From NCBI GenBank assembly GCA_963840455.1, contig CAWIYV010000013.1, forward strand, positions 1-64,000: a stretch of 64,000 nucleotides of DNA, in the 5' to 3' direction. This DNA is from Nitrospirota bacterium. Lineage in GTDB: Bacteria > Nitrospirota > UBA9217. Position 1 is the first letter of the stretch. The number at the start of each line of letters is the position of its first letter. A program made the position numbers and the translations under genes. Below the pieces are notes generated by a model, which saw nothing but the letters and a program-made list of their open reading frames with translations, made no database searches and was not told where the DNA came from. Of this stretch, positions 490 to 50,302 are shown in pieces.

Positions 490-1053
490 ATGAAAAAGTC
501 GCTGGGTGCTAAAACGCTTGCGCAGCCAGCACCTGTCTGGGTTGTCGGAAGCTATGACTCGCAGGGGAAGCCGAACATGATGACCATTGCATGGGGCGGG
601 ATATGCTGCTCACAACCTCCCTGCGTCACTATTTCCTTGCGCAAGGCAACGTACACGTACGGGTGCATCAAGGAGCGCAAAGCATATACCATTAACATCC
701 CGTCTGCTGCGCTGGTGAAAGAGGTGGACTATGTCGGCACGACGTCGGGGAAAAATGTCGACAAGTTTGCGATGACGAAACTGACCCCCGTTAAAAGCGA
801 ACTCGTTGACGCTCCGTACATCAAAGAATTCCCTCTGGTGATTGAGTGCAAAGTGCTCCATACGCTTGAGATCGGGCTCCACACGCAATTCATCGGTGAG
901 ATCATGGACATCAAGGCTGAAGAGTCGGTGCTCGGCGAACAGGGAATTGTGGATATCCTAAAGGTCAAGCCCCTTGTTTTCGATGCAGGGCAAGGAGCCT
1001 ACTATGGCATTGGCGAGCGTATCGGCAGGGCTTTTTCGATCGGGAAAAAGTAA
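490..1053 (+). CDS. Flavin reductase family protein (flavoredoxin-like)
   Basis: 187 aa; [29 protein letters not shown] and [10 protein letters not shown] motifs; AAGGAG RBS. Confidence 0.85.
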
Positions 1054-1158
1054 TAAGGCCATGTCAAATGCGAAAGCCAATGCAGCGAGACCATAAAGAC
1101 ATCTGGGACACAACATCCCCTAAGCATTCACATTTGCGTGGAAAGGAGATGAATTTAC

Positions 1159-1620
1159 GTGAATCACAAGAAAATAGCCATGGAACATGATAAAAAGATC
1201 GCCCTCGTCGCGCATGACAATAAAAAGCATGATCTGGTTGAATGGGCAAAATACAATCAAGTGCTCTTGGATCATCACAAGATTTATGCTACGGGGACAA
1301 CCGGCGAGATTTTGGAACAACAGCTTGGCTTCAAGATCAACAAACTCCAGAGCGGACCGTTGGGCGGCGATCAGCAAATCGGCGCCAAGATAGCCGACGG
1401 CGAGATCGACTTTCTTATCTTTTTCTGGGATCCGCTCGAACCGCAGCCTCACGATCCGGATGTTAAGGCGCTCTTGCGCATGGCCGTAGTATGGAATATT
1501 CCAATTGCCTGCAATCGAGCCTCCGCCGATTTCACGATCTCCTCCCCCTTGATGGATGGCGATTATGATCGTCTTGTGCCGGATTACAATGTTTATCGAA
1601 GCCGGAAGATCGGGGGTTAA
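1159..1620 (+). CDS. mgsA: Methylglyoxal synthase
   Basis: [27 protein letters not shown] and [11 protein letters not shown] motifs. Confidence 0.95.
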
Positions 1621-1634
1621 CGAGCTGAGCGAGG

Positions 1635-1650
1635 TGCGCTCGCTCATGGA
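1635..1650 (-). mobile_element. Truncated left end of the two-hairpin MITE (family A)
   Basis: Minus strand reads ATGAA|TCCATGAGCGAGCGCA, matching the TGAA|TCCAGGAGCGAGCGCA start of the full copies. Confidence 0.6.
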
Positions 1651-1850
1651 TTCATCAAGCTCCGCTGCAGCCTTGAAGGTGTCGTTAACTGTATCTCCCC
1701 GTGCGAAACGATACTAGTGCTGTTCCCGGCTAGCAGGGAATGCCGTTATAATCCTTGTCAACATCCGCCGGATATTGTAAGCTTTTCCTGCGACGCGACG
1801 ACCCTTCCCTCGTGGCAGCACGGCATGAGCGCGGCCGGCAGACCTCCATC

Positions 1851-4373
1851 ATGGCCACCTATCCCATCGATGCCATACTGCCTGAACTGAACGAGGCCGT
1901 GCGCGGCCACCCGTCGGTGGTCCTGCACGCGCCGCCGGGCGCGGGCAAGACCACACGCGTCCCTCTGTCGCTCCTCGACGTGCTGCCGCCCGGTCAGGGC
2001 AAGATCATCATGCTCGAGCCGCGCAGGATCGCCGCGGTATCCGCGGCGCGGTGGATGGCGCGCACGCTCGGCGAAGAGGCGGGCGGGACCGTCGGGTACA
2101 CCATCCGATTCGATTCAAAGGTGTCGTCGCGGACGCGCATCGAGGTCGTGACCGAAGGCGTGCTTACCCGCCGTCTTCAGGCGGACCCCGGCCTCGGAGG
2201 CACAGGCCTGGTCATCTTCGACGAGTTCCACGAGCGGAGCATCCACGCCGACCTGGCGCTCGCGCTCTGCCTCGACGTCCGCAAAGGCCTGCGCACGGAC
2301 CTGAAGGTCCTGGTCATGTCGGCCACCCTGGACACCGGCCCTATCGCCGCGCTTCTCGGCGGCGCGCGCGTCATCACCTCCGCCGGCAGGTCCTATCCCG
2401 TGGAAGAGCGCTATCTCGAGGAGGAGCGGCCCGGGCCGCTGCCGCCCCGCATCACTGCTGCGGTCCGGACCGCGCTCCGGGAGACCAACGGCGACATCCT
2501 CGTGTTCCTGCCCGGATCCGGCGAGATCCGCGCCTGCGCCCGCGAGCTGACCAACGCGTTCGATCTGAACGAAGAGCGCATCGCGCTCCACGCGCTCTAC
2601 GGCGACCTGCCCTTCGAGGAACAGGAGCGCGCCATCGTGCCGTCCCGCGATCAACGGAAGATCGTTCTGGCGACGAACATCGCCGAGACGAGCCTGACCA
2701 TCGAGGGCGTCCGGGTGGTCATCGATGGCGGCCTGACGCGAATGCTCCGGTACGACCCTGCGACGGGCATGAACCGGCTCGTGACCGTTCCCGTGTCCCG
2801 GGCCTCGGCGGAGCAGCGCAAGGGCCGCGCAGGTAGGCTCGGACCGGGCGTGTGCTACCGCCTCTACGGCAGGCACAGCCTTCAGAGCATGGTCCCGTTC
2901 ACGCAGCCCGAGGTCCTGGTATCCGACCTTGCCCCTCTTGCCCTGGAGCTCGCGGTCTGGGGCGTGAAGGACCGCATAGCCCTGTCGTGGCTTGACACGC
3001 CGCCTGATGCGGCCTGGAACGCCGGGCTGGGCCTGCTCCGCGAACTGGGCGCTCTAGACGCTTCGGGTTCGGTTCTGCCCCTCGGCCGGGCCATGGCACG
3101 CCTGCCGCTCCATCCGCGGCTCTCACGCCTTATGCTCCGCGCCAAAGAGCTCGGCTGTGTCAGCCTGGGCGCTGACCTCGCGGCCCTCGTCACGGAACGC
3201 GATATCTTCCGGCACAGCTCTGCGGCCCACATCATCGATGACCCTGACTTTACCGAACGGGTCGACGCCCTCCGGGCCTGGCGGCGCAAGAAAGCCGTGG
3301 ACGGGGGAGCGGACCAATCCGCGCTCCGTTCCGTGGAGCGGACAGCGACTCAGCTCAAGCACTTGATGCCCGAAGCCACAGGGAGCGATGCCGCGGACCC
3401 GGAGACCGTGTCACGCCTCCTGCTGGCCGCATTTCCCGACCGGGTCTGCAAGCGCCGCAGCGAAGGCGGGGGACGCTTCGTCCATGTGCAGGGAAGGGGC
3501 GTGCGACTGTCGAAGGACAGTTACCTGGGCGACAGTCCGTACATCATCGCCGTATCCGTAGATGCCGGGGAGCGGGCCGAAGGCTTCGTCCACCTGGCGG
3601 CGCCGGTCACGGAGGAGCTTCTGCGCGAAGAATGCGCTGACCGCATCGAGACCGTACGGCGAGCGGAGTGGGACCGCAAGGAGAACAGGGTCGCCGCAGC
3701 CAAAGAGGAACGCTACGGATCGCTCCTGCTGTCCAGCAGGACCTCCATACCGGGAGATGACGAGGTCACGCCCATTCTGTGCGAGGTCATAAGGACCATG
3801 CCGGGCATGCTCGCCCTGACCAGCGAAACGAGACAGTTCCAAGCCAGGGTGGAGCTTCTGAAAAAAGCGTTTCCGGAAGAGCCCTGGCCGGACCTTTCGG
3901 ACGCTGAACTTCTCTCCCGGCCTGAAGCATGGCTCGTGCCATGGCTGGGAGGCATCAGGACCGGCCAGCAGCTTTCCGGACTGAACATCCTGCCCGCGCT
4001 CAGGGCCCGGCTGACGCGGGAGCAGGGACGGCTGCTGGAAGAGCGCGCGCCAGCGGCTATCGTTGTGCCGAGCGGCAGCCGCGTGACGATCGACTATGCA
4101 TCCGGCAGCCAGCCGGTGCTTGCCGTGAAGCTCCAGGAGATGTTCGGGCTTGCCGACACGCCGATGATCGCGGGCAACAGGGTGAAGCTCCTGCTCCATC
4201 TTCTCTCGCCCGCGCGCAGGCCGGTCCAGATCACGCAGGACCTGAAGGGTTTCTGGAATAACAGCTATCCGCTGGTGAAGAAGGACCTGAAGGGCCGCTA
4301 TCCGAAGCATCCCTGGCCCGACGATCCCTGGAATGCCGTGCCCACGCGCCGCGCAAAGCCCCGGGGGATGTAG
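1851..4373 (+). CDS. hrpB: ATP-dependent RNA helicase HrpB
   Basis: GAGKTT, DEFHER, SAT, QRKGRAGR motifs and the HrpB C-terminus (YPKHPWPDDP); ATG 1851 chosen over the ORF-track start at 1755. Confidence 0.95.
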   Translation: MATYPIDAILPELNEAVRGHPSVVLHAPPGAGKTTRVPLSLLDVLPPGQGKIIMLEPRRIAAVSAARWMARTLGEEAGGTVGYTIRFDSKVSSRTRIEVVTEGVLTRRLQADPGLGGTGLVIFDEFHERSIHADLALALCLDVRKGLRTDLKVLVMSATLDTGPIAALLGGARVITSAGRSYPVEERYLEEERPGPLPPRITAAVRTALRETNGDILVFLPGSGEIRACARELTNAFDLNEERIALHALYGDLPFEEQERAIVPSRDQRKIVLATNIAETSLTIEGVRVVIDGGLTRMLRYDPATGMNRLVTVPVSRASAEQRKGRAGRLGPGVCYRLYGRHSLQSMVPFTQPEVLVSDLAPLALELAVWGVKDRIALSWLDTPPDAAWNAGLGLLRELGALDASGSVLPLGRAMARLPLHPRLSRLMLRAKELGCVSLGADLAALVTERDIFRHSSAAHIIDDPDFTERVDALRAWRRKKAVDGGADQSALRSVERTATQLKHLMPEATGSDAADPETVSRLLLAAFPDRVCKRRSEGGGRFVHVQGRGVRLSKDSYLGDSPYIIAVSVDAGERAEGFVHLAAPVTEELLREECADRIETVRRAEWDRKENRVAAAKEERYGSLLLSSRTSIPGDDEVTPILCEVIRTMPGMLALTSETRQFQARVELLKKAFPEEPWPDLSDAELLSRPEAWLVPWLGGIRTGQQLSGLNILPALRARLTREQGRLLEERAPAAIVVPSGSRVTIDYASGSQPVLAVKLQEMFGLADTPMIAGNRVKLLLHLLSPARRPVQITQDLKGFWNNSYPLVKKDLKGRYPKHPWPDDPWNAVPTRRAKPRGM

Positions 4374-4549
4374 CTCAAGATGACCACCGCCACGGGCTTC
4401 ATTAGGACGTTCTCCGTAGCGTTCCATGAAAGACTACGTGAGCAACCTTCACAGATCCGCACCGAATAATCTCTCACCACATTGCGATCCTATACCCCCT
4501 TTTGGTGAAAAGCTACCGCAAATATATGAAAATAATTTACTATTTTTTC

Positions 4550-4577
4550 TTGCTTTTTGTATTTTTTTTGGTATAAT
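4550..4577 (+). promoter_or_regulatory. Sigma70-type promoter of the Gly-rich lipoprotein gene
   Basis: TTGCTT-16 bp-TATAAT with extended -10 TG, in an AT-rich context. Confidence 0.55.
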
Positions 4578-4725
4578 TCTGTCAATCACTCGGCAAGCAG
4601 TAAGAAGCGTAGATAGACCAGCCCCCGGCTTCGCCACATGGAGCCGGGAGGAGAAGCTTGGATAACATCCCCTGTACAGGTCTGGAAGGGACCGGCAGGG
4701 CACCCTACACGAGGAGGTAGATATC

Positions 4726-6840
4726 ATGAAATTTACAAGGATCCTGATCATTATGGTCTTAGCAATGGCGCTTGCTGCATGCGGCACCAACACCAGCACC
4801 AGCACCAGCAACAATAACAACAATAATAACAGTGCAAACGATCCGGTGCCGGTGATACCGACTCTCCTGGCAAGCGGCGGCACAAGCACCAGCGGCACGG
4901 GCGGAAGCGGAGGGTACGTGTACGTTCAATCGTACGGAGCGGTCAAAGTACTGAAATCCGGCACCGTGGACGCGAGCTTCGACTCTTCAGTATCGACGCC
5001 CCCGCTGGAAATTGGTGCCAATCCTGCGGTTGTCAGCGGCGGCACAACGACGCTCGAACTGGTCAGCGATCTCACCAGCACCATAACCGGTCTGTACGCG
5101 AAGCCCGGTGATCCTTATCTGTACCTGGGAGACGGGGACGGCGATACGACAAATGACCTTGCGGTAACGGACCTCACTATAAACGCCGGCGCTACCCTTG
5201 TTCTCGCTGACCAGGGATATTGGGGGGGATACGGAGCGGTCTGGCTATCGAACTACCTGGTGATCAACGGCACGATCACTTCCACAGCACCATCAGTTTA
5301 TGTTGAGGCGAATGTGATCGACGTCAAGAGCAGCGGCAGGATCACCACCTCTGCGACAAATGATGGGTCGAATGCGGGGGACATATGCCTGGGCAACGGG
5401 AACAACATTACCAAGACCATCATCAACCGCGGCACGATCGAGGCAAAGGGCCTCGGCACGGGGAGCGGCGGGTACCTGTATTTTGACGCCGATGACCTTA
5501 TTGTCAATTACGGCACGATCGATGCCAGCGGCGGGAGCAGCGCCGCTGGTTCTGGAGGTAACGGAAATGAGATGGATATTTACGTCAATAATGACGGCGG
5601 CAAATTCTACTCCTTCGGCAGCATTCTCGCGAAGGGCGGCGATAGCACCGACAGCTCCGGCTCAAATGGCGGTACTGGCGGCTACCTCTATATCGATGTC
5701 CCCGACCTAGTTGTCAACACCGGTACCATTGACGTCAGCGGAGGAGGCAGCGATACTGGCGCAGGCGGAAGCGGTGGAGAATTTGACGTCTATGTCAACT
5801 ACGGTGATTTCTATTCCTCGGGCATCGTGCGCATGAACGGAGGTAAAGGGGCGACAAACGGCGGCGACACTGAATCCTGGAACGAATACTGGTATGGATA
5901 CTCGGCATGGATCGAGACCGCATATTCCGACAATACCCGGGGCAGGAACGGTGATATCATCATCAGCGGGACCTGGGAAGCCAATGGCGGTGACGGTGGT
6001 AATGGCAGTGGTGGTTACGGCGGCTATATATACCTCGAGACCGACGCAATGGGAGCTGTAACGATCAACGCAACCATGTCCGCAAAGGGTGGGAATAGCT
6101 CACAAGCAGGATATTCCGGCGGCAGCGCGGCATATGGTATTGAGATCTATTCTTACAACTATTACAGCGATCCCGCAACGCCCGGCAAGATCCGCATTGC
6201 CGGCCAGTACGATCTCCGGGGCGGCAATGGCGACGAAATGGGCGGCAACGGAGGATATTTCTACGTCTACAGCGGCGGCTACAACTCGTCCAATATCGGG
6301 TCTGATGTGGAACTTGTCGGTTTTCCGGCGATGAACCTGAATGGCGGGGATGGAGCGAATGGCGGCAGCGCAGCTTCATACGCAGTCCAGCTCAACACGA
6401 ATTCTCCTAACGGAATGCCGGCAGGTCCTATCACGAACGAGGCCAATATCGAGGCGCGGGGCGGGAATGCCGCCGCGACAACGGGGAGCACAGGCGGTTC
6501 GGGCGGCACCGTGGAGATGATAACGAGCGGAATTAGTGATCCCTCTGAGGTCATCACCAACTCCGGCAGCATTGATATATCGGCCGGCACGGGTGATACG
6601 GGCGGCAGCGACAACAATATGATCTGGTTTTGGGCGCAGCACGTTACGAACTCCGGCAATCTCACAGCCAATGGCGGAAACGTGACAACAGGCGGGACAA
6701 CAGGCGGTGGGAGCGGCGGGAACATCTATCTTACGTCCGACGACGGCATGACTACGAATACCGGTACCCTGAGCGTGACCGGGGGCACGCCGGACGGTTC
6801 GGATGGTTCTGTCAACATAGACGCAGGCGGTCCTACATAA
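4726..6840 (+). CDS. Glycine-rich repetitive surface lipoprotein (probable beta-solenoid)
   Basis: Lipobox LAAC, Asn-rich tether, recurring G-x-I-x-A-x-GG...GGxGGxxxI units; GGAGG RBS. Confidence 0.75.
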   Translation: MKFTRILIIMVLAMALAACGTNTSTSTSNNNNNNNSANDPVPVIPTLLASGGTSTSGTGGSGGYVYVQSYGAVKVLKSGTVDASFDSSVSTPPLEIGANPAVVSGGTTTLELVSDLTSTITGLYAKPGDPYLYLGDGDGDTTNDLAVTDLTINAGATLVLADQGYWGGYGAVWLSNYLVINGTITSTAPSVYVEANVIDVKSSGRITTSATNDGSNAGDICLGNGNNITKTIINRGTIEAKGLGTGSGGYLYFDADDLIVNYGTIDASGGSSAAGSGGNGNEMDIYVNNDGGKFYSFGSILAKGGDSTDSSGSNGGTGGYLYIDVPDLVVNTGTIDVSGGGSDTGAGGSGGEFDVYVNYGDFYSSGIVRMNGGKGATNGGDTESWNEYWYGYSAWIETAYSDNTRGRNGDIIISGTWEANGGDGGNGSGGYGGYIYLETDAMGAVTINATMSAKGGNSSQAGYSGGSAAYGIEIYSYNYYSDPATPGKIRIAGQYDLRGGNGDEMGGNGGYFYVYSGGYNSSNIGSDVELVGFPAMNLNGGDGANGGSAASYAVQLNTNSPNGMPAGPITNEANIEARGGNAAATTGSTGGSGGTVEMITSGISDPSEVITNSGSIDISAGTGDTGGSDNNMIWFWAQHVTNSGNLTANGGNVTTGGTTGGGSGGNIYLTSDDGMTTNTGTLSVTGGTPDGSDGSVNIDAGGPT

Positions 6841-6886
6841 AGAATAAGGAACACGAGAGGTCGTCCTGTAGAAAAGATGATAATTT

Positions 6887-6922
6887 GAGCGGGGCAGGAG
6901 AGATCCTGCCCTGCTCTTTTTG
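6887..6922 (+). terminator. Intrinsic terminator
   Basis: GAGCGGGGCAGGA-GAGA-TCCTGCCCTGCTC followed by a T run. Confidence 0.8.
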
Positions 6923-7021
6923 TTCATACGAACGTCTGTCAACAGGATTTCCTGGTATCTTGCATTGACACGCTTGTCTCTGGCCTTAATTCGCCGCGTA
7001 ATAATCGGAAAGACCGCCTGT

Positions 7022-7083
7022 AGCACCCCTGGCCCGACGATCCCTGCAAGGCCGTGCCCACGCGCCGTGCCAAGCCTCCGGGT
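7022..7083 (+). repeat. Degenerate direct copy of the hrpB 3' end (4306-4365)
   Basis: agcacccctggcccgacgatccctgcaaggccgtgcccacgcgccgtgccaagcc vs agcatccctggcccgacgatccctggaatgccgtgcccacgcgccgcgcaaagcc. Confidence 0.9.
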
Positions 7084-7330
7084 ACTCTCTGGTCACTGCC
7101 GGCGAAACAAAATGAGGACGGTTGATTCGCGCGTAAGAAAGACACTGCAAAAGATCCGCATATTTCCCCCTCCGAATGACGTCTTCTCCTGTTCATCCTC
7201 CCCTGGTCCTGCTAATAAAGTTGCACGGAATTGCGCCGGGGTCATACACACATTGGATCATCTGCGCTATAATCTACCTATAACAATGTGCTCTATTCCA
7301 TTCATGATCCTGGACAAGGAGGGGACCGCC

Positions 7331-8383
7331 ATGAAATGCTCGAAAGATGCACTCCCGATAGCGATCGTATCAGTTTTCTGTGCTGTCTTGTATTGCGCGG
7401 CACCGCTGCTCGCCGCGGGCCCTGACGACGACCTCATGAACAGGGCCAAAACGATTTTCGGGCCATTGCCAGCTTCTATGCCGTCCCCGGACAATCCCAT
7501 CACCCCGGAGAAGGTGAAGCTCGGGAACATGCTCTTCTTCGAATCCCGGATATCCATCGACAGGACCGTGAGCTGCGCCAAGTGCCATCCCCCGGGGCTT
7601 TACGCCGCAGACGGGCTTCGGAAGGCGCTCGGCAACCACTGCAAGGAGAATCCGCGCAACTCGCCCACGATCCTGAATGCGGCGGACCAGATCTCGGAGC
7701 ACTGGATCGGGAACCGGACGAGCGTTGAGGACCAGGCAAGACAGGCGGTGACCGGTCCGCCTGCCTTCGGCATGCCGAACAACGAAGCGGTCGAAAAGGT
7801 CCTGAAGGGAATGAAGGACTACGTGACCCTGTTCAAGGCGGCTTTTCCCAATGACAAGGAGCCGGTGACGGTGGAGAACTTCGCGAAGGCGATCGGCGCC
7901 TTTGAGCGGACGCTCATGACGCCGGCGCCTTTCGACGACTTCCTGCAGGGTAACGCCAAAGCACTCACGGACCAGCAGAAGCGGGGCCTCAAGACCTTCA
8001 TGGATACGGGTTGCATGACCTGCCACTTCAGCCCCTACCTGGGGGGCAAGATGTACCAGAAGTTCGGTGTCTTCGAGCCTTACCAGAAGTACACGAAGAG
8101 CGTGCAGGTCGATGATGGCAGGTTCGCGGTGACGAAGAGCGAGGCGGACAGGTTCGTGTTCAAGGTCCCGGTGCTCAGAAACGTGGCCATGACGCCGCCA
8201 TACTTCCATGATGGGTCCGTTGATCGACTTGTGGATGCGGTCACGATCATGTCCAAAGTACAGCTGGCCAGGGACCTAACCACCGGCCAGGCCGACGACA
8301 TTGTGGCCTTCCTGCAATCACTGACCGGGAAAATGCCGGAATCGATTATCAGGACACCGGTCCTTCCGGCAGAGGACCGATAA
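7331..8383 (+). CDS. Dihaem cytochrome c peroxidase (CcpA/MauG family)
   Basis: Signal peptide, CAKCH and CMTCH haem motifs, RNSPT and FKVPVLRNVAMTPPYFHDGS; ATG 7331 follows a GGAGG RBS. Confidence 0.9.
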   Translation: MKCSKDALPIAIVSVFCAVLYCAAPLLAAGPDDDLMNRAKTIFGPLPASMPSPDNPITPEKVKLGNMLFFESRISIDRTVSCAKCHPPGLYAADGLRKALGNHCKENPRNSPTILNAADQISEHWIGNRTSVEDQARQAVTGPPAFGMPNNEAVEKVLKGMKDYVTLFKAAFPNDKEPVTVENFAKAIGAFERTLMTPAPFDDFLQGNAKALTDQQKRGLKTFMDTGCMTCHFSPYLGGKMYQKFGVFEPYQKYTKSVQVDDGRFAVTKSEADRFVFKVPVLRNVAMTPPYFHDGSVDRLVDAVTIMSKVQLARDLTTGQADDIVAFLQSLTGKMPESIIRTPVLPAEDR

Positions 8384-8478
8384 CGGGCAGCGTTGAGAAG
8401 GGAAGCAGGGACAGGATCGGATCATAAACGTTCCGCCACTCCCTGCCGCGGAGAGGGCTTCTCACGGGACGACGTCAG

Positions 8479-9381
8479 CTAGCCTTTGGCTGCTCGCCGG
8501 TAACCACGCTCCTGAGCAACGGCGTCGAGGCGAAGCGTGGCCAGGTCTTCCACGGGCAGCAGGTCGACCGGGGTGGGGGAGAAGGCGGGGATGACCTTCA
8601 CATAGGTCATGCATCGGTCGCAGGCCTCGATGCGCGGCCCGGCTGGATCATTCTGGAAGAACACCTTGAGAGAGCGATGATCCTCATTCCCGCAGTGAAT
8701 GCAGGACAGCCGCGCGACCCGCCAGTCAGCTCCGCAGAGGCCGCAGCGAAGATGCCGCTCCTGATTATTTCCCTGAAGCTCGGCAAAGAGGGGCGCCGAG
8801 CCGCAGACGAAGCAGGTCCCCCGGTCCCATTTCACGTCCACAACCAGCGGAGCGACGCGGCGGCACCACGCCCGCAGCAGGGGGCTCAGTGCGGTCTGTG
8901 CCAGGAACCCGCATAGATCGCTGTCCAGGCCAATCCGTTCCAATCTGTTCCCGAGCAGTTCGTCATTGTGCGCCAGGATGGTTTGGAATGCCGCGCTTGC
9001 ATCGTCGTCACGCTCTTCGTCGAGCAACAAGCTGATCTTCTCGGCGATCTCCCTGGCGCCGGCCTTTTCCGCAGCCGCTGCGAGCCTTGTCAGAAGACCG
9101 GTTAATCGCTGGATATCGACCTCCAGTTCGAGGCCTTCCAGGTACGGGAGACCCTGTTCAAGTCGCGTTCTCACCTCGTCCTGAGAAAGACCTGTCGGAA
9201 GAACAAGCAATTCCTCGCCGCGAAGAATCGGAAGGATGGCACCGTACAGCCGAGCGGTTTGCGCCATATCTGGAAAGCTATCTGCGATCACCTTCAGACG
9301 TTCGCGCAGTATTTCATCGCCATCGATGGTTCCGGTGTGCATAGCGTCTTTCCGCATCCCGATACCGGGATCGCATCGCAT
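8479..9381 (-). CDS. fdhE: Formate dehydrogenase accessory protein FdhE
   Basis: Four CxxC pairs (CFVC, CGLC, CIHC, CDRC) and DLATLRLD..A...GY C-terminus; last gene of the fdh operon; start uncertain (9342, 9357 or 9381). Confidence 0.85.
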   Translation of the reverse strand: MRCDPGIGMRKDAMHTGTIDGDEILRERLKVIADSFPDMAQTARLYGAILPILRGEELLVLPTGLSQDEVRTRLEQGLPYLEGLELEVDIQRLTGLLTRLAAAAEKAGAREIAEKISLLLDEERDDDASAAFQTILAHNDELLGNRLERIGLDSDLCGFLAQTALSPLLRAWCRRVAPLVVDVKWDRGTCFVCGSAPLFAELQGNNQERHLRCGLCGADWRVARLSCIHCGNEDHRSLKVFFQNDPAGPRIEACDRCMTYVKVIPAFSPTPVDLLPVEDLATLRLDAVAQERGYRRAAKG

Positions 9382-18344: not shown

Positions 18345-18358
18345 TCGCCTGTGGTGAA

Positions 18359-18625
18359 TCCAGGAGCGAGCGCATTCCCCGCAGCTTGCTGCGGGGCTAG
18401 CGAGTGATTAGAATAACGAACTTCCCTGAGGATCGAAGCTCCATGCAGCTATTCGTAGGGAGCTTAAATCCAGGAGCGAGCGCATTCCCCGCAGCTTGCT
18501 GCGGGGCTAGCGAGCGATTAGAATAACGAACTTCCCTGAGGATCGAAGCTCCATGCAGCTATTCGTTAGGGAGCTTAAATCCAGGAGCGAGCGCATTCCC
18601 CGCAGCTCGGTGCAGGGAGCTTCAA
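18359..18625 (+). mobile_element. Tandem array of two-hairpin MITE family A (110 + 111 + 46 bp)
   Basis: Copies at 18359-18468, 18469-18579 and an internally deleted copy at 18580-18625; follows GTGAA; units end TTAAA or TTCAA. Confidence 0.85.
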
Positions 18626-20277: not shown

Positions 20278-20340
20278 GGCCTACAGGAAAAAGAACACAA
20301 CTACCAATTCTTACCGCCAAATAACCACCGCTCTCTTTTA

Positions 20341-20526
20341 TGGGCAGCACGGTGGCTCCGCTGTGCTAAGCATGCGGTATGCGGGTACTCGTTCTTGTCA
20401 CGGTCTGTCATTCCCGGCAGCGCTACCCCTGCGGACGCGCTGCTTTATTGTCTGTTCTTGTTCGGACTGGATACCGGCATGCATACGCACAGTCGTCGCA
20501 GCCGAGCTGCCCGGGGTTGGGGGTAA
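20341..20526 (+). repeat. Rod-like palindromic module B, copy 1
   Basis: Near-identical to 20754-20939; nested stems GGGCAGC/GCTGCCC, CTGTGC/GCACAG and GCATGC-GGTAT/ATACC-G-GCATGC; ends GGGGTTGGGGGTAA. Confidence 0.85.
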
Positions 20527-20563
20527 GGCAGGATTTTCAAGCCGCTGAATTATCCAAAGCGCC

Positions 20564-20731
20564 CTGCATCCCGTGAACAGGTCCACGCACAAGCATGCCC
20601 GGGAACAGGATCGGCAAATCATCGATCATGCCTGCGCGTGCGAAGCGAAAGCGCACACGGATTGTAGGAACAGCAGGCTAACGGAGAGGACCTCGTGGCA
20701 TGCCTGCGTGGGCCTGGGAACGGCGGTGCAG
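20564..20731 (+). repeat. Palindromic module C (variant interior)
   Basis: Termini ctgcatcccgtgaacaggtccacgcacaagcatgc ... gcatgcctgcgtgggcctg..ggtgcag-A run are shared with the copies at 43919 and 46430. Confidence 0.8.
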
Positions 20732-20753
20732 AAAAAAAGAGACTCGCTCTTTT

Positions 20754-20939
20754 TTGGCAACCCGGTGGCTCCGCTGTGCTAAGCATGCGGTATACGGGTA
20801 CTCGTTCATGTCACGGTCTGTCATTCCCGGCAGCGCTACCCCTGCGGACGCGCTGCTTTATTGTCTGTTCTTGTTCGGACTGGGTACCGGCATGCATTAC
20901 GCACAGTCGTCGCAGCCGGGCTGCCCGGGGTTTGAGTAA
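20754..20939 (+). repeat. Rod-like palindromic module B, copy 2
   Basis: Direct repeat of 20341-20526; ends GGGGTTTGAGTAA. Confidence 0.85.
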
Positions 20940-34329: not shown

Positions 34330-34346
34330 CTGCTTAAGTCTTCGCC

Positions 34347-34531
34347 TTACTCAACCCCCGCACGTCTCCGGAGCGGACCTACGAAATTATTGGGCACCCG
34401 TCTTGGCCTAAGGAAGCGTCCCGACAGGGCGTCCGCGCATGTCCGAGGCCGCAGGCCGAGTTTGCGCGGGCGAGCGGACGTGGCCTTAGACGGGTCAATA
34501 ATTTCGTTCAGGACGCGAAGGGGATGTGCAA
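34347..34531 (-). repeat. Rod-like palindromic module D, copy 1
   Basis: Reverse complement matches 43705-43887 and 46214-46399. Confidence 0.9.
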
Positions 34532-34815
34532 AAAAAAGATCACAACGGCAGAGCGATGAGCTGCCCAAAAAAGAAAAAATCATGCATTTTTTCCGACGAC
34601 GATCGGGCATGTAAAGCAGGGCAGAGCACGGCGCTGCTCAATTAAAGAAGATCACGATCAGGCCAAAGGTCAAGCTGGCCCTCTAGGTTCACAGTTTCGA
34701 ATATCATTGACACCCGCCGTTCCTTTTGCTACTGTCATTACAGGGCCAATCAGCGAAGAGGGCGACCATGCCTTCACCCATCAGGCCCGATTTCCGTGAG
34801 CGAAAGGAGCTCCCC

Positions 34816-35820: not shown

Positions 35821-35852
35821 CATTCCCCTCAGAAAGTTGCAGGGAGCTTTAA
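35821..35852 (+). mobile_element. Degenerate minimal copy of MITE family A
   Basis: CATTCCCCTCAG..TTGCAGGGAGCTTTAA resembles the 46-bp copy at 18580. Confidence 0.5.
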
Positions 35853-37838: not shown

Positions 37839-37883
37839 GCCCGAGTTCCTTCTCCCGATGATGCGGTCCTGGGTCGCTGTCCA

Positions 37884-37907
37884 GCAGCTTGCCACAGGGA
37901 GCTTCAA
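37884..37907 (+). mobile_element. Isolated right end of MITE family A
   Basis: GCAGCTTGCCACAGGGAGCTTCAA vs consensus GCAGCTTGCTGCAGGGAGCTTCAA, in intergenic DNA. Confidence 0.6.
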
Positions 37908-43599: not shown

Positions 43600-43704
43600 A
43601 TTATTCTGCAGACCTAGCGCACAGCAATACATTATTATGAGGAAATTGGTTTTGTTCAGAGCAGCACGTGTCTAGCTATTGCGCCTGGTTGTTTGTGGAT
43701 GTTG

Positions 43705-44164
43705 TTGCACATCTCTTTCGCGTCCTGAATGCGTTTCTTGACCCATCTAAGGCCACGTCCGCTCGATCGCGCAAACTCGGCCTTCGGCCTCGAACATGCG
43801 CATCGCCCTGCGGGACGCGGCCTTAGGCCAAGATGGGTGCCCAAGAAACGCATAGGTCCGCTCCAGAGACGTGCGGAGTTTGGGTAAAAGCCTCAAGCTT
43901 CTGCCTTTCCTAAGGCCTCTGCATCCCGTGAGCAGGTACGCGCACACGCATGCGGAAGCAACAACAGCCAGTGCCACCACGAAGACAGGCAGACACGGCC
44001 GAGCACTGATCCTCAGTGCGAGGGGAAGTGCTGCGATGTCTGAAAAAGCCCGTTATCAGAACCGGCAGTGCATGCCTGCGCGGACCTGTGAGCCGGGGTG
44101 CAGAAAAAAAATCATCGCCGTGTATACTCGACCCACTTGCGAAGGAGAAGACCCGAAAAAAATA
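43705..44164 (+). repeat. Composite repeat D + C + E, copy 1 (no MITE insertions)
   Basis: D 43705-43887, C 43919-44103, tail to 44164; colinear with 46214-46888. Confidence 0.9.
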
Positions 44165-44180
44165 TGAATGAGGTGCTCTC

Positions 44181-46115
44181 TTATTCACGGTTTCCCAATC
44201 CTTCAAAGAACCTCCTGAACTCCTCCCGGTCGTCGGTGATGCGGCATTTGGGGATCGATCGTAAGAAGGACCTGCCGTAGTTCTTCGTCATGATGCGCGA
44301 GTCCAGCACGGCGACCGCCCCTTTGTCCGTCTTCGTCCTGATGAGCCTGCCGAACCCCTGCCGGAACAACAGCGTCGCCTGCGGCACCTGATACTCATAG
44401 AACGGGTTCTTCAGCCGCTCCATGCGCGCCTCGATGAGCGGCTCGTCGGGCACGGCAAAGGGGAGCTTGGCGATCACGACGCACTGGAGTGCCTCGCCCG
44501 GGATATCGATGCCCTGCCAGAACGAGGCGGTGCCGAGCAGCACGGCGTTCGGGACCTCCTTGAACTGCTCTACCAGGCGGTAGGCCGGCATCTCGCCCTG
44601 GCACAGGATGCCGAGCTGCGGCAAGGCGCCTCGCAGCGTTCCCTTTGTCTTCCTGAGCTGGCTGTAGCTCGTGAACAGCACGAGCGTCCGGCCGCCGGTG
44701 ACGCCGAGTATCGTGAGGAGCTCCTTCTCGAACCGCTCCTGATATCCTGCAGCCTGCTGGTCGTCAAGGCCCGGCGAGATGTAGAGCAGGGCCTGGTTCT
44801 CGAAGTCGAAGGGCGAATCGAGCAGCAGCTCCGCGGGCGCGTCCAGGCCGACCCTTCCTTTTATATACTCGAAGGACCCAGCTGCCGAGAGCGTGGCCGA
44901 GGTCAGCACCGCGGTGTCGAGCCTGCCGAAGAGATGCTCCCGCAGGGTCTCGGCGATGTCGATGGGCGAGGCCACAAGGCGGTACTTCTTGTTCTCGCGC
45001 TCGGCCCAGTAGACAAAGCCCTCCTGCCCCTGGTCAAGATTGTGACGGATGGCGGACGCGAGACCGCCTGCCCTGCCCGCGAAGGCCCGCACCTCCTGCT
45101 CTTCCTCGTGCGTGTTCGCCTTGAGCGACAGGAGTGTGTCCTTCAGCTGGCTGAGGGGACCGGAAAGGATGTCGGGGACGATGTTCGGCCGGCGCACCCG
45201 GAGGACCGGCTCCTGCTTCAGCGCGTCGTGGAGGTTCAGGAAGAAGTTCTCGGCGGTGAGCCGGAGATCGTCCACGAGGTCGCGCGCGGTCCGGGCCGTG
45301 TGGTCCTGGATGGCGAGCCGGGTGAGCATCCCTTTGCGAGTCCGCTGGCTCAGGAGATTGTCCAGGAGGTAGCGGACCGAGTAGTTGGACACCTCGACGC
45401 CCAGGTAGTCCGTGGCCACGTCCTCGATCTGATGCGCTTCGTCGAACACGACGGCCTGGTGCTGGGGCAGGACGTTCCCGCCCGTGGCCATGTCGGCAAA
45501 GAAGAGGTGGTGGTTCGCCACGAGCACCTGGGCCTGCTGCTCCAGGAGCTTCCCCTTCTGGTAGAAACAGTCCTTGTAGCTGTGGCACTCCCTGCCGAAG
45601 CAGAGGTCCGCCTCGCGGTTCGCCTTTGCCCAGAGCGCCCCGGTGGGTTCGAAGGACAGCTCGCTCCGGAGGCCGGTGCGGGTATGCGTGGACCATTCGA
45701 AGAGCCGGTTCAGCGGTTCCACCTCGTTCTGCTCATAGAGGTCGCCCATGCGCAGCTGGTCGAAGCGCCGGAGGCAGAGGTAGTTCTCGCCGCCTACGCA
45801 GAGCGCCACACGGAAGTCGCCGATCACGGTCTTGAGGAAGGGGATGTCCTTTTTCACGATCTGCTGCTGGAGGGCCTTGGTGTAGGTGGCAACGACGACG
45901 CGGCAGTTCTCCTCGCGCGCCCAGAGTACGAGAGGCACAAGGTAGGCAAGGCTCTTGCCCACGCCGGTGCCCGCCTCGACGACGAGGTGGGTCTTGCTGC
46001 GGAGCGCCTTCTGGACGGCCTCGGCCATTTCCAGCTGCTGGGGCCGAAACTCGTAGTCATCGCCCATGGCGGCGGCGACGAGCCCGGCCTCTCCGAGGAT
46101 GTCGGTTATCTTCAT
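44181..46115 (-). CDS. dinG: DinG/YoaA-family ATP-dependent DNA helicase
   Basis: EAGTGVGKS, Fe-S cysteines, DEAH, TSATL and QGFGRLIR motifs. Confidence 0.9.
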   Translation of the reverse strand: MKITDILGEAGLVAAAMGDDYEFRPQQLEMAEAVQKALRSKTHLVVEAGTGVGKSLAYLVPLVLWAREENCRVVVATYTKALQQQIVKKDIPFLKTVIGDFRVALCVGGENYLCLRRFDQLRMGDLYEQNEVEPLNRLFEWSTHTRTGLRSELSFEPTGALWAKANREADLCFGRECHSYKDCFYQKGKLLEQQAQVLVANHHLFFADMATGGNVLPQHQAVVFDEAHQIEDVATDYLGVEVSNYSVRYLLDNLLSQRTRKGMLTRLAIQDHTARTARDLVDDLRLTAENFFLNLHDALKQEPVLRVRRPNIVPDILSGPLSQLKDTLLSLKANTHEEEQEVRAFAGRAGGLASAIRHNLDQGQEGFVYWAERENKKYRLVASPIDIAETLREHLFGRLDTAVLTSATLSAAGSFEYIKGRVGLDAPAELLLDSPFDFENQALLYISPGLDDQQAAGYQERFEKELLTILGVTGGRTLVLFTSYSQLRKTKGTLRGALPQLGILCQGEMPAYRLVEQFKEVPNAVLLGTASFWQGIDIPGEALQCVVIAKLPFAVPDEPLIEARMERLKNPFYEYQVPQATLLFRQGFGRLIRTKTDKGAVAVLDSRIMTKNYGRSFLRSIPKCRITDDREEFRRFFEGLGNRE

Positions 46116-46443
46116 GGGCAGGTACAGTACCACGGGGAAGGGGAGAAGGCAAACGGTTTCCTGAAAGACCCTTTGAAAGAAGGGAAGGGAAGGACACAAT
46201 CTGTTTGTTTATTTTGCACATCCCTTTCACGTCCTTAACGAAATTTCTGACCCGTCTAAGGTCACGTCCGCTCGCCCGCACAAACTCGGCCTGAGGCCTC
46301 AGACATGCGCGTTCGCCCTGACGGGACGCTACCTTTGGCCATGACAGGTGCCCCAGAAATTTCGTAGGTCCGCTCCAGGGACGTACGGAGTTTGGGTAAA
46401 GCCTTAAGCTTCTGTCTTTCCCAAGGCCCCTGCATCCCGTGAA

Positions 46444-46546
46444 TCCAGGAGCGAGCTCAGCCCCGCAGTTTGGGCTCAGCGAGCGACTAGAATAAAGACT
46501 ACCCTGAGGATCGAAGCTCCATGCAGTTTGCTTTTGGGAGCTTCAA
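46444..46546 (+). mobile_element. MITE family A inserted in module C
   Basis: catcccGTGAA|element|CAGGT vs the empty site catcccGTGAA|CAGGT at 20573. Confidence 0.9.
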
Positions 46547-46706
46547 CAGGTGCGCGCACAAGCATGCGAAAGCAAAAAAAGCCAGTGCCACCACGAAGGC
46601 AGGCAGACACGGCCGAGCCCGGCTGTGCCGGGCGAGGGGAAGTGCTGCGATGTCTGAAAAAGCTCAGTATCAGAACCAGCAGTGCATGCCTGCGCGAACC
46701 TGTGAA

Positions 46707-46812
46707 TCCAGGAGCGAGCGCATCCCGCGTGTTTTCGCGGGATTAGCGAACGATTAGGATAAACTTACCTTGAGGATCGTATCTCCATGCCTCTTGCTGC
46801 TGGGAGATACAA
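46707..46812 (+). mobile_element. MITE family A (divergent copy) inserted in module C
   Basis: acctGTGAA|element|CCGGGGTGCAG vs the empty site acctGTGAG|CCGGGGTGCAG at 44088. Confidence 0.9.
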
Positions 46813-46969
46813 CCGGGGTGCAGAAAAAAGAAGAGCAGCGCGGTGCATACTCGACTCACTTTCGATGGAAAAGACCCGAAAGAAAATAGTGCCTTTTTTA
46901 CGGCCGTACGTTTCCGCCTCGTAATGCAATGCCTTTTCAACTGACGGCAAGTGTTGTATCATACCTCCC

Positions 46970-50033: not shown

Positions 50034-50079
50034 ATCGAGCGGGACGGCAGAGACGATTGGACGATGATCTCCGATTGAA

Positions 50080-50302
50080 TCCAGGAGCGAGCGCATTCCC
50101 CGTAGCTTGCTGCGGGGTTAGCAAGCGATTAGAATAACGTTGTTCCCTGAGGATCGAAGCTCCATGCCTCTCGCAGTAGGGAGCTTCAATCCAGGAGCGA
50201 GCGCATTCCCCGTAGCCTGCTGCGGGGTTAGCAATCGATTAGAATAAATAGTTCTACCTTGAGGATCGAAGATTCCGTGCAGCTTGCTGCAGGGAGCTTA
50301 TT
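50080..50302 (+). mobile_element. Tandem pair of MITE family A
   Basis: TTGAA|50080-50189 (ends TTCAA)|50190-50302. Confidence 0.85.

Follow-up and report, generated by a model that had tools for sequence, protein, structure and literature searches.

A TGAA-targeting, two-hairpin repeat family in a Nitrospirota genome as a candidate bacterial PATE

The window analysed here is a 64,000-nt stretch of a Nitrospirota bacterium genome (contig CAWIYV010000013.1, positions 1 to 64,000; C13:1-64000 among the 14 contigs of this 4.03-Mb genome, G000). In one of its intergenic regions, a repeat that we call module C is interrupted twice by a short two-hairpin element, whose units are 103-113 nt long and thus too short for a transposase gene. 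What kind of element is this, and how could it have spread? By combining a genome-wide census, an analysis of the element's ends and a comparison with transposase-bearing relatives, we conclude that it is very probably a non-autonomous, protein-less derivative of the IS200 group (IS200/IS605), i.e. a bacterial palindrome-associated transposable element (PATE).

Precise insertion 3' of TGAA

Both inserts are hosted by a single module C copy (46200-46900), module C being an intergenic repeat of ~410-470 nt with roughly 25-30 copies or fragments in the genome. Copy 1, of 103 nt, is preceded by gtgaa (46439-46443), followed by caggtgcg and ends in TCAA; copy 2, of 106 nt, is preceded by gtgaa (46702-46706), followed by ccggggtgc and ends in ACAA (Table 1). 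The initial annotation of the window had named uninterrupted module C sequences as the corresponding empty alleles, and both are indeed present (Table 1). Moreover, when the whole genome was searched with 45-nt anchors taken from each side of both sites, the predicted empty sites were found exactly elsewhere: gcatcccgtgaa^caggt at C11:117757 for site 1, and cctgtgaa^ccgggg at C13:117614, C7:423808 and C9:196674 for site 2 (the caret marks the insertion point). The filled sites read gtgAA, then TCC...C, then AA and c, and the element boundary can slide by up to two bases.

Neither insertion is unique to this locus. At least five module C copies contain the site-1 insert with 99-100% identity, which therefore entered once and later spread with module C; copy 1 itself is identical to a copy at C4:107787 at every match column. 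As the initial annotation had claimed, copy 2 keeps its hairpin through compensatory changes, with two base pairs altered on both sides of the stem (GTATCTCC/GGAGATAC instead of GAAGCTCC/GGAGCTTC), and this compensated variant is also found at C14:12656. Both copies belong to a diverged subfamily, type 1, defined by its right end (see below). Solitary type 1 copies are mostly found within module C copies and, given the near-identity of the site-1 inserts, go back to a few old insertions that module C has taken with it.

A profile of 112 positions, built from 141 full-length BLAST matches and run with nhmmer (E<=0.01), returned 396 matches in the genome, corresponding to 355 non-overlapping units at 288 loci, of which 241 hold one unit, 33 two, 8 three and 6 four. 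The repeat family thus makes up ~1% of the 4-Mb genome. Only 10 of the 288 loci fall inside open reading frames (ORFs; crude gene call of 3044 ORFs, 77% coverage), and by gene context 166 loci are co-directional, 56 convergent and 54 divergent. For one tenth of the copies the nearest neighbour is at least 98% identical, and near-identical copies occur at unrelated loci.

The boundaries are remarkably uniform across this set. First, the left flank of the leftmost copies (n=239) is T in 198, G in 207, A in 217 and A in 226 cases, the bases further upstream being random; TGAA directly precedes 159 of the 239, against 1.1 expected. Second, the right end is TCAA in 152 of 185 terminal copies, and the next base is a pyrimidine in 173 of them (T 99, C 74). 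Third, where units follow one another, a single tetranucleotide separates them (n=44), which is TAAA 33 times, TCAA 9 times and TGAA twice. The ends themselves, TCCAGG... and ...GCTTCAA in the consensus, are unrelated, and terminal inverted repeats are absent. The last two bases of the left flank equal the first two of the right flank in only 1 of 163 loci. The preference for TGAA on the left and TCAA on the right, proposed from the few copies in the window, therefore holds throughout the genome, in the case of TGAA far above chance.

End architecture, guide pairing and tnpA-bearing relatives

Reading along the written strand, the element opens with a left arm of 18 nt whose last four bases are CATT. 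Hairpin 1 (CCCCGCAGCTTGCTGCGGGG) comes next, and a conserved linker leads on to GATT, hairpin 2 (CCCTGCAGCTTGCTGCAGGG), AGCT and TCAA. Hairpin 1 spans columns 19-38 and stands 18 nt from the left tip, hairpin 2 spans columns 85-104 and stands 8 nt from the right tip, and both have the core GCAGCTTGCTGC; the two halves of the element are homologous (AGGA.CGA...ATT plus hairpin). DNA fold prediction gives both hairpins (-19.5 kcal/mol, z = -2.1), and in hairpin 1 a total of 1365 of 1541 non-gap cells are Watson-Crick or G-T pairs. Cells with G-T outnumber those with A-C in hairpin 1 (138 vs 55) and in hairpin 2 (99 vs 64), counts that subfamily markers inflate; this excess hints that the written strand may be the functional one. 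The 12-nt hairpin cores occur 172 times in the genome, all but 4 of them within element copies.

Two right-end flavours can be told apart. The type 2 end (a perfect hairpin preceded by GATT) usually belongs to single units or to the last unit of an array, with another unit next in 8 of 100 cases, while the type 1 end (GAAG-CTCCATGC...GGGAGCTT(A/C)AA) is mostly found inside arrays, with another unit next in 47 of 71 (Fisher p 4e-16). A strict confinement of type 1 units to array interiors was considered and discarded, as 24 of the 71 have no following unit. Arrays reach four head-to-tail units, with six adjacent matches at one locus, and already hold right end-left end junctions (TCAA^TCC and TAAA^TCC), which mimic the junction of an excised circle. 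Among 40 left-end-only matches, 16 are ~46-nt forms in which the left arm is followed by a single hybrid hairpin and AGCTTCAA. Others of the 40 belong to a ~150-nt variant, where a conserved stretch of 38 nt (TCTTGCCCCCAGCG...GTGCAGGGG) is inserted right behind hairpin 1 (C10:136657-136811, C11:114753-114905 and ~7 more loci in G000). Finally, other short sequences sit exactly inside hairpin loops (C10:59297 and C14:263129 in G000; L089, L098, L101, L137, L139, L147 and L189 elsewhere). They measure 24 to ~120 nt in the loop GCAGC^TTGCTGC (e.g. GGCTCGAC...GCCGAAGTC), and an example in hairpin 2 is TCCCGCCAGAGCGGGAC.

In IS608, cleavage-site bases 1, 2 and 4 are described as pairing with guide bases 2, 1 and 4; at the right end C-3 pairs with G-35 and T-4 with A-34, A-2 being unpaired (PMC3201880). 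In our own reading, which takes the fourth pair from TCAA/GAAT and TTAC/AAAG, the guide would thus consist of the complement of site base 2, that of site base 1, any base and the complement of site base 4. The initial annotation had applied this rule, deducing that a TGAA target needs CAnT; the deduction agrees with the pairing given in PMC3201880, and the CATT that it had noticed adjoins the foot of hairpin 1 in 135 of 230 leftmost copies. With CATT/TGAA, the left end obeys the rule in all subfamilies. The type 2 right end obeys it too, with GATT at the foot of hairpin 2 followed by AGCT and TCAA. CATT/TGAA and GATT/TCAA differ precisely at the two positions predicted to pair (C/G vs G/C).

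Elements that carry only tnpA, from the same bacterial family and from wetland and sediment metagenomes (L008-L012, L014, L015, L021, L024, L242, L259/L261 and L282), have the same construction. Among 84 perfect hairpins (stem >=8, both strands) at 21 Y1 loci of the family, 7 satisfy the rule with a 4-nt linker, and 5 of these 7 lie directly 3' of tnpA (L009, L011, L014, L015 and L021; GATG/TCAC and CAAG/TGAC). Four further right ends with one stem mismatch fit when judged by eye, namely L008 and L012 (AATG/TTAC) and L010 and L024 (GATG/TCAC). At 80 metagenome loci encoding kin of that TnpA, the rule is satisfied by 34 of 313 hairpins, 31 of them right ends by position, where GATG or GAAG goes with TCAC and AATG or AAAG with TTAC, always with a 4-nt linker. 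For left ends, examined at 26 two-ended loci with the guide-predicted site 13-16 nt upstream, the linker count peaks at 14 nt (11 of 26), which is also the left-end linker of our element. The left pairs of the relatives co-vary as AATA/TTAT, GATA/TCAT, AATG/TTAC, and GAAG or GATG/TCAC. For 12 copies in genome G076 the left-end register is ambiguous (flank ...TTTAT, guide AATA), and the wider set settles on TTAT. The two copies L259 and L261 of one element place the boundary 18 nt from the hairpin foot, as in the element studied here.

The hairpins themselves are also shared. In L242 both are identical to hairpin 1 of the element, and its right linker is AGCT too; those of L008 are 1-2 nt off, and those of L008, L011 and L282 together 0-2 nt off. 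L282 (G045:C60) is a frameshifted IS200-type element in the element-rich genome G045, with a right end GATA...AGGT TCAT; its left hairpin is 1 nt away from the common CCCCGTAGCTTGCTGCGGGG variant, and the right one has decayed. In another genus, L282 is matched by a deletion derivative of ~130 nt that shares its ends but has no gene (L113/L115, G016); the two make up a second pair of IS and PATE in the same bacterial family. Despite these likenesses in hairpin cores, pairing rule, left side (14-nt linker and 4-nt guide) and right side (4-nt linker and 4-nt site), the relatives differ in encoding a Y1 gene of 140-147 aa, in their other termini and in their targets (TTAT, TCAT, TTAC, TCAC). None of them bears the termini of the element, and no member of the clade was found in the element-rich genus. 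Both ends of the element are thus built like those of this clade, while its guide/site pairs are its own. CATT/TGAA and GATT/TCAA beside AATA/TTAT, GATA/TCAT, AATG/TTAC and GAAG/TCAC form a natural guide/target series, which agrees with the experimentally established IS608 pairing rule.

The template of the lagging strand has the sequence of the leading strand, and in this organism we take the G-rich strand to be the leading one. At 195 of 288 loci, the written strand of the element coincides with the strand that is locally richer in G (p 1.8e-9). Gene direction does not account for this, as the bias is seen both between convergent genes (39:17) and between divergent genes (37:17), together 76 of 110 (p 7.7e-5). 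According to PMC5027513, IS608 and its relatives insert their active strand on the lagging-strand template. The orientation bias is as expected for single-strand insertion at the replication fork and supports the IS200/IS605 reading.

Together, these observations suggest the following scheme. A Y1 HUH transposase supplied in trans would excise the + strand of the element as single-stranded DNA and paste it into the lagging-strand template 3' of TGAA, with a preference for TGAA^Y. Both subterminal hairpins would be bound by the enzyme, and pairing of DNA with DNA would determine where it cuts. On the left, CATT at the foot of the first hairpin would pair with the site TGAA, which lies in the flank 18 nt 5' of this foot; on the right, GATT at the foot of the second hairpin would pair with the site TCAA, which lies 8 nt 3' of that hairpin. 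Because TGAA survives 5' of each insertion it would be re-usable, and head-to-tail arrays may grow by site re-use together with local duplication. The 46-nt terminal-only forms would result from recombination of one hairpin with the other, similar one.

These features have precedents. PATEs were defined in Haloquadratum walsbyi (e.g. HqIRS46) by Dyall-Smith et al. 2011 (PMC3119063), where they are described as having no inverted ends, no duplications, near-terminal palindromes similar to each other and related to those of IS605-type elements, a 5' targeting sequence of 4-5 bp and a 5' tip longer than the 3' one. The same source describes 52-bp terminal-only forms arising via deletion between the two palindromes, small repeats (SMR-A) inserted into palindromes, and strain-specific insertions despite broken IS200-type genes. 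Every PATE feature listed there has a counterpart in the Nitrospirota family, the hairpin-loop inserts recalling the SMR-A repeats. The differences are that the hosts are haloarchaea in one case and Nitrospirota in the other, that the sequences are unrelated, and that our family targets TGAA, forms head-to-tail arrays, has two right-end flavours and has relatives with tnpA only and no tnpB. PATE-like minimal elements have also been described in Geobacillus by Meers et al. (PMC10055086).

With IS608 of Helicobacter pylori, as presented in PMC3201880 and PMC5027513, the element shares subterminal hairpins on one strand, a guide at the hairpin foot, the position of the left cut (predicted for our element) in the flank 18-19 nt 5' of the hairpin, that of the likewise predicted right cut within the element and only a few nt past the 3' side of the hairpin, TCAA as right site, AG after the right hairpin and the lagging-strand-template orientation. 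In contrast to IS608, it has neither tnpA nor tnpB, targets TGAA instead of TTAC, would be cut on the right 8 nt instead of 10 nt from the foot and has T instead of A as third guide base. A search of one literature library on mobile or intergenic repeats of Nitrospirae/Nitrospirota did not find a published description of this repeat family. It is a new family of a known class and reveals no new mechanism.

Partner enzyme and rival explanations

The initial annotation had proposed that the element is an IS200/IS605 derivative mobilised in trans, and had named as counter-evidence the lack of any HUH transposase with these ends in the genome or its relatives. Anatomy and comparison support the derivation. 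Mobilisation in trans would account for the insertions, but the partner gene was not found: no HUH transposase gene with the ends of the element was detected in the genome, the genus or any examined locus. What the relatives offer is a HUH transposase with shared hairpins and architecture, but with other termini, so that half of that counter-evidence holds. The family appears to be orphaned in its genome and genus, with no cognate tnpA found.

The own genome gave three Y1_Tnp matches, one of them under the family cut-off. The first (L001, G000:C10:392228-395587) is an IS200-type gene with an in-frame TAG, orthologous to L027; its intact ortholog in G004 carries a different hairpin, CCCCCGGCTCCTGCCGGGGG. 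L001 is decayed and AT-richer, has lost its left hairpin and adjoins a tRNA gene; directly upstream of it lies a sequence resembling the right end of the element (...GCAAGCTTCAAC). The second is a 76-aa fragment of a long Y1 type. Proteins of that type (~330 aa, N-terminal Y1 HUH domain and C-terminal helix-turn-helix-like tail) are multi-copy in the genus (L032-L063, G001-G005), with 17 matches in G005 and 12 in G004. Their genes are diverged paralogues with ~65-95% DNA identity and no shared flanks.

Two distant left-right end pairs were considered as autonomous copies and rejected: C11:706779-707904 encloses an ordinary gene, and C11:232988-233432 is an element interrupted by a module C piece. 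The genome has no TnpB zinc-ribbon (PF07282). It has no match to the Y2 transposase (PF04986) either, a search that is uninformative, since 14 control genomes were equally blank. The 80 metagenome tnpA loci contain no partner with the termini of the element.

Several observations weigh against an IS200-group derivative. First, they concern the enzyme. Besides the missing gene, no element sequence was detected (nhmmer E<=1) within 1.5 kb on either side of 37 Y1 loci (L027-L063), which include 30 genus loci drawn from 38 Y1 matches, and across 32 Y1 loci (L001-L003, L008-L036) the L008 hairpin alone gave a match, and a weak one (E 0.095). For none of the 80 public left-end matches listed is there a tnpA homologue at a distance of up to 1.2 kb. 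The genomes richest in the element (genus g1, G045 and G018) have no intact gene of the 147-aa clade, and G045 has only the frameshifted L282.

Second, they concern the ends. The linear segments (columns 1-15, 41-50 and 67-81) are 91-99% conserved and the hairpin stems only 51-89%, which would be contrary to a simple recognition of hairpin sequence. The type 1 right module, present in both copies inserted into module C at 46200-46900, violates the guide rule: its stem pairs GAAG with CTTC, and its conserved feature is the 8-bp stem GAAGCTCC/GGAGCTTC. Flank variants within the genome are not compensated in the guide, CGAA occurring with CATT 9 times; however, as flank changes are probably later mutations, this covariation test probably has little power. 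Moreover, the strand test presupposes a leading strand with positive GC skew in this organism.

Third, they concern the boundaries, which had been described as exact and free of duplication. The TGAA^C empty sites are exact, and the flanks of the genome-wide copies display TGAA without classical duplication. However, since element and target both end in AA, insertion without duplication cannot be told apart from an A/AA duplication, and one of 1-2 nt cannot be ruled out. AA has been lost in the left flank at 14 of 163 loci and in the right end at 4 of 163, an asymmetry that fits slightly better with a left target and a right element end than with a duplicated AA; at the two loci where both flanking AA are altered, the altered dinucleotides do not match each other.

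In a first alternative, the family may be active, or at least under selection, in the whole genus without any cognate IS200-type transposase, being moved or maintained by an agent not so far connected with such ends, e.g. the divergent ~330-aa paralogues or host replication/repair activity, or having been co-opted for a structural or regulatory role; in that case, presentation of the cut site at the type 1 right end would follow a different, canonical stem-pairing mode. We consider this unlikely.

A host-retained structured repeat, with a cellular role as DNA or RNA like that of repetitive extragenic palindromic (REP) sequences and bacterial interspersed mosaic elements (BIMEs), now maintained by selection instead of transposition and spread only by recombination and as a passenger of other repeats, is distinctly improbable in our view. 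The conservation of the non-hairpin segments, kept across genera, the lack of a cognate transposase in the genus, the many solitary type 1 copies riding on module C, and the old copies that keep their hairpin by two-sided changes would all suit it. However, it does not predict 288 dispersed loci with the same exact TGAA boundary, nor near-identical copies at unrelated loci, and a role acquired after insertion leaves the arrival of the copies unexplained. Rfam returned only tRNA at gathering score, a 14.9-bit c-di-AMP match (E 0.35) being taken as chance; no T run follows the hairpins, and the split of gene contexts is unremarkable.

It is very doubtful that the element is REP- or REPIN-like and moved by a RAYT-type (REP-associated tyrosine transposase) or other divergent Y1 protein, such as the ~330-aa Y1 proteins. 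The genes of the latter are the only common Y1 genes in the genus, Y1 chemistry is compatible with the anatomy, and REP/BIME and REPIN sequences with their RAYTs are likewise high-copy intergenic hairpin repeats tied to Y1 HUH enzymes (PMC3116915, PMC3333891). According to the same sources, though, REPs are single hairpins of 20-40 nt that usually come as inverted pairs and border a RAYT gene present in one copy, whereas our units are 110 nt long with two hairpins, stand head to tail and lack an associated gene. In addition, the surroundings of L027-L063 are blank as described above, the ~330-aa genes share no flanks, and the genome of this window, with the most copies, has only the 76-aa fragment.

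We give almost no weight to a non-autonomous rolling-circle element (IS91/Helitron-like), to which the 5' TC, the A in the left flank (226/239), the T or C in the right flank (99 and 74 of 185), the 3' subterminal hairpin and the lack of duplication would conform, as against a second, left-end hairpin with IS200 spacing and guide matches, and hairpins common to tnpA (Y1) elements. An ordinary miniature inverted-repeat transposable element moved by a DDE transposase can practically be dismissed: in formal terms, filled and empty sites could be read as a 2-bp target duplication of AA (...gtg AA, the element without its AA, AA cagg...), but the terminal inverted repeats are missing, the 4-nt motif is one-sided, AA loss is asymmetric with mismatched changes at the two doubly altered loci, and the strand bias is unaccounted for.

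Distribution and other copies in the window

All 5 sampled genomes of the genus contain the element, as do 17 of 24 from the bacterial family, whereas ten other families of the phylum gave 0 of 16. When sampling within the family was extended, 21 of 61 genomes including G000 were positive (E<=1e-6). A public scan with the exact left-end pattern, one genome per species, gave at least 80 matching stretches. Among the 80 listed, 79 are titled Nitrospirae, Nitrospirota, Nitrospiraceae or Nitrospiria and one is a Chloroflexia-labelled metagenome-assembled genome (MAG). This 6.5-Mb MAG (G077) has three copies, one of them near-consensus, within 20 kb of a 4.18-Mb contig (C8:55201-74086; L126/L197-L199), which suggests a transfer from a Nitrospirota genome or a chimeric stretch. 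G077 was rejected as a source of the partner enzyme, its Y1 matches lying >950 kb from the element copies.

Copies from five other genera all read TGAA^...TCAA and keep CATT and GATT despite adjacent indels. In one subfamily, TCC... has become TTC... jointly with GGAT becoming GAAT at columns 73-76; this joint change would compensate a stem predicted to span the right end-left end junction.

The left ends listed in the initial annotation were all correctly placed (18354-18358, 50075-50079 and, on the minus strand, 1651-1655), the last one belonging to a left-end fragment only (Table 1). At the orthologous place of 18359-18625, the closest relative (G003, flanks ~90% identical) holds only the 46-nt form; therefore, two type 1 units have been gained or lost upstream of it. 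At the 50080 array, the intergenic DNA of G001, G003, G004 and G005 is ~130-200 nt shorter than in G000 and too diverged for a clean alignment.

Table 1. Element copies, fragments, target sites and empty sites in the window (positions counted from the first base of the window; a caret marks an insertion point or unit junction)
Feature	Position	Strand	Description and evidence
Left-end fragment	1635..1655	-	ATGAA and ~16-nt left-end fragment only; missed by nhmmer
Two head-to-tail type 1 units	18359..18579 (18359-18468, 18469-18579)	+	98% alike, junction TAAA^TCC; nhmmer
Terminal-only form, 46 nt	18580..18625	+	18-nt left end, one hybrid hairpin, AGCTTCAA; sequence, nhmmer
Empty site 1, partial module C copy	20574..20578	+	cccgtgaa^caggt; TGAA^C, junction 20577^20578
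Fragment	35821..35852	+	CATT, one hairpin, AGCTTTAA; without the left 14 nt; repeat family D2
Right-end fragment	37876..37907	+	ends in AGCTTCAA; repeat family D2
Empty site 1, uninterrupted module C copy	43929..43933	+	cccgtgag^caggt; TGAG^C
Empty site 2, uninterrupted module C copy	44089..44093	+	cctgtgag^ccgggg; TGAG^C, junction 44092^44093
TGAA target, 5' of copy 1	46440..46443	+	empty alleles TGAA^C or TGAG^C
Copy 1, module C site 1	46444..46546	+	type 1 right module; nhmmer positions 1-112, E 3.5e-22
TGAA target, 5' of copy 2	46703..46706	+	read from sequence
Copy 2, module C site 2	46707..46812	+	type 1 right module, stem GTATCTCC/GGAGATAC; nhmmer E 7.5e-20
Two-unit array	50080..50302	+	type 1, then type 2 with decayed right tip; TTGAA before; nhmmer

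In public runs X1, X3, X5 and X6 (wetland, freshwater and subsurface metagenomes assembled into short contigs), the joints near 46652-46811 and 50116-50257 derive from other copies or repeats, and the loose end at 46705 is the paralogue at 44088; these contigs thus show no clean joint indicative of excision as a circle. Over the window segment 50056-50443, the summed contig depth in the same runs is 900-8900 in the element bins vs ~1-70 in the flanks, a depth that sums all organisms in a sample, and loose ends begin at 50075-50077, i.e. at (T)TGAA. This depth and these loose ends fit very many copies with a common TGAA boundary. The repeat breaks assemblies and needs masking or annotation in Nitrospirota MAGs; it also repeats in bacteria the puzzle of Haloquadratum, abundant PATEs without an intact transposase.

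Module C occurs in the window at 43680-44180 (uninterrupted), 46200-46900 (interrupted), 20553-20740 (partial) and 34344-34537 (inverted), and a DinG-like helicase gene (44181-46199, minus strand) sits between two direct copies. As a module C piece is found inside the element copy at C11:232988-233432 and the element inside module C, invasion has gone both ways between these families. On both sides of the partial module C copy stands a 148-nt direct repeat, 95% identical (20337-20484 and 20750-20897), with an additional 35 nt at 20484/20898 and a similar sequence near C11 706800.

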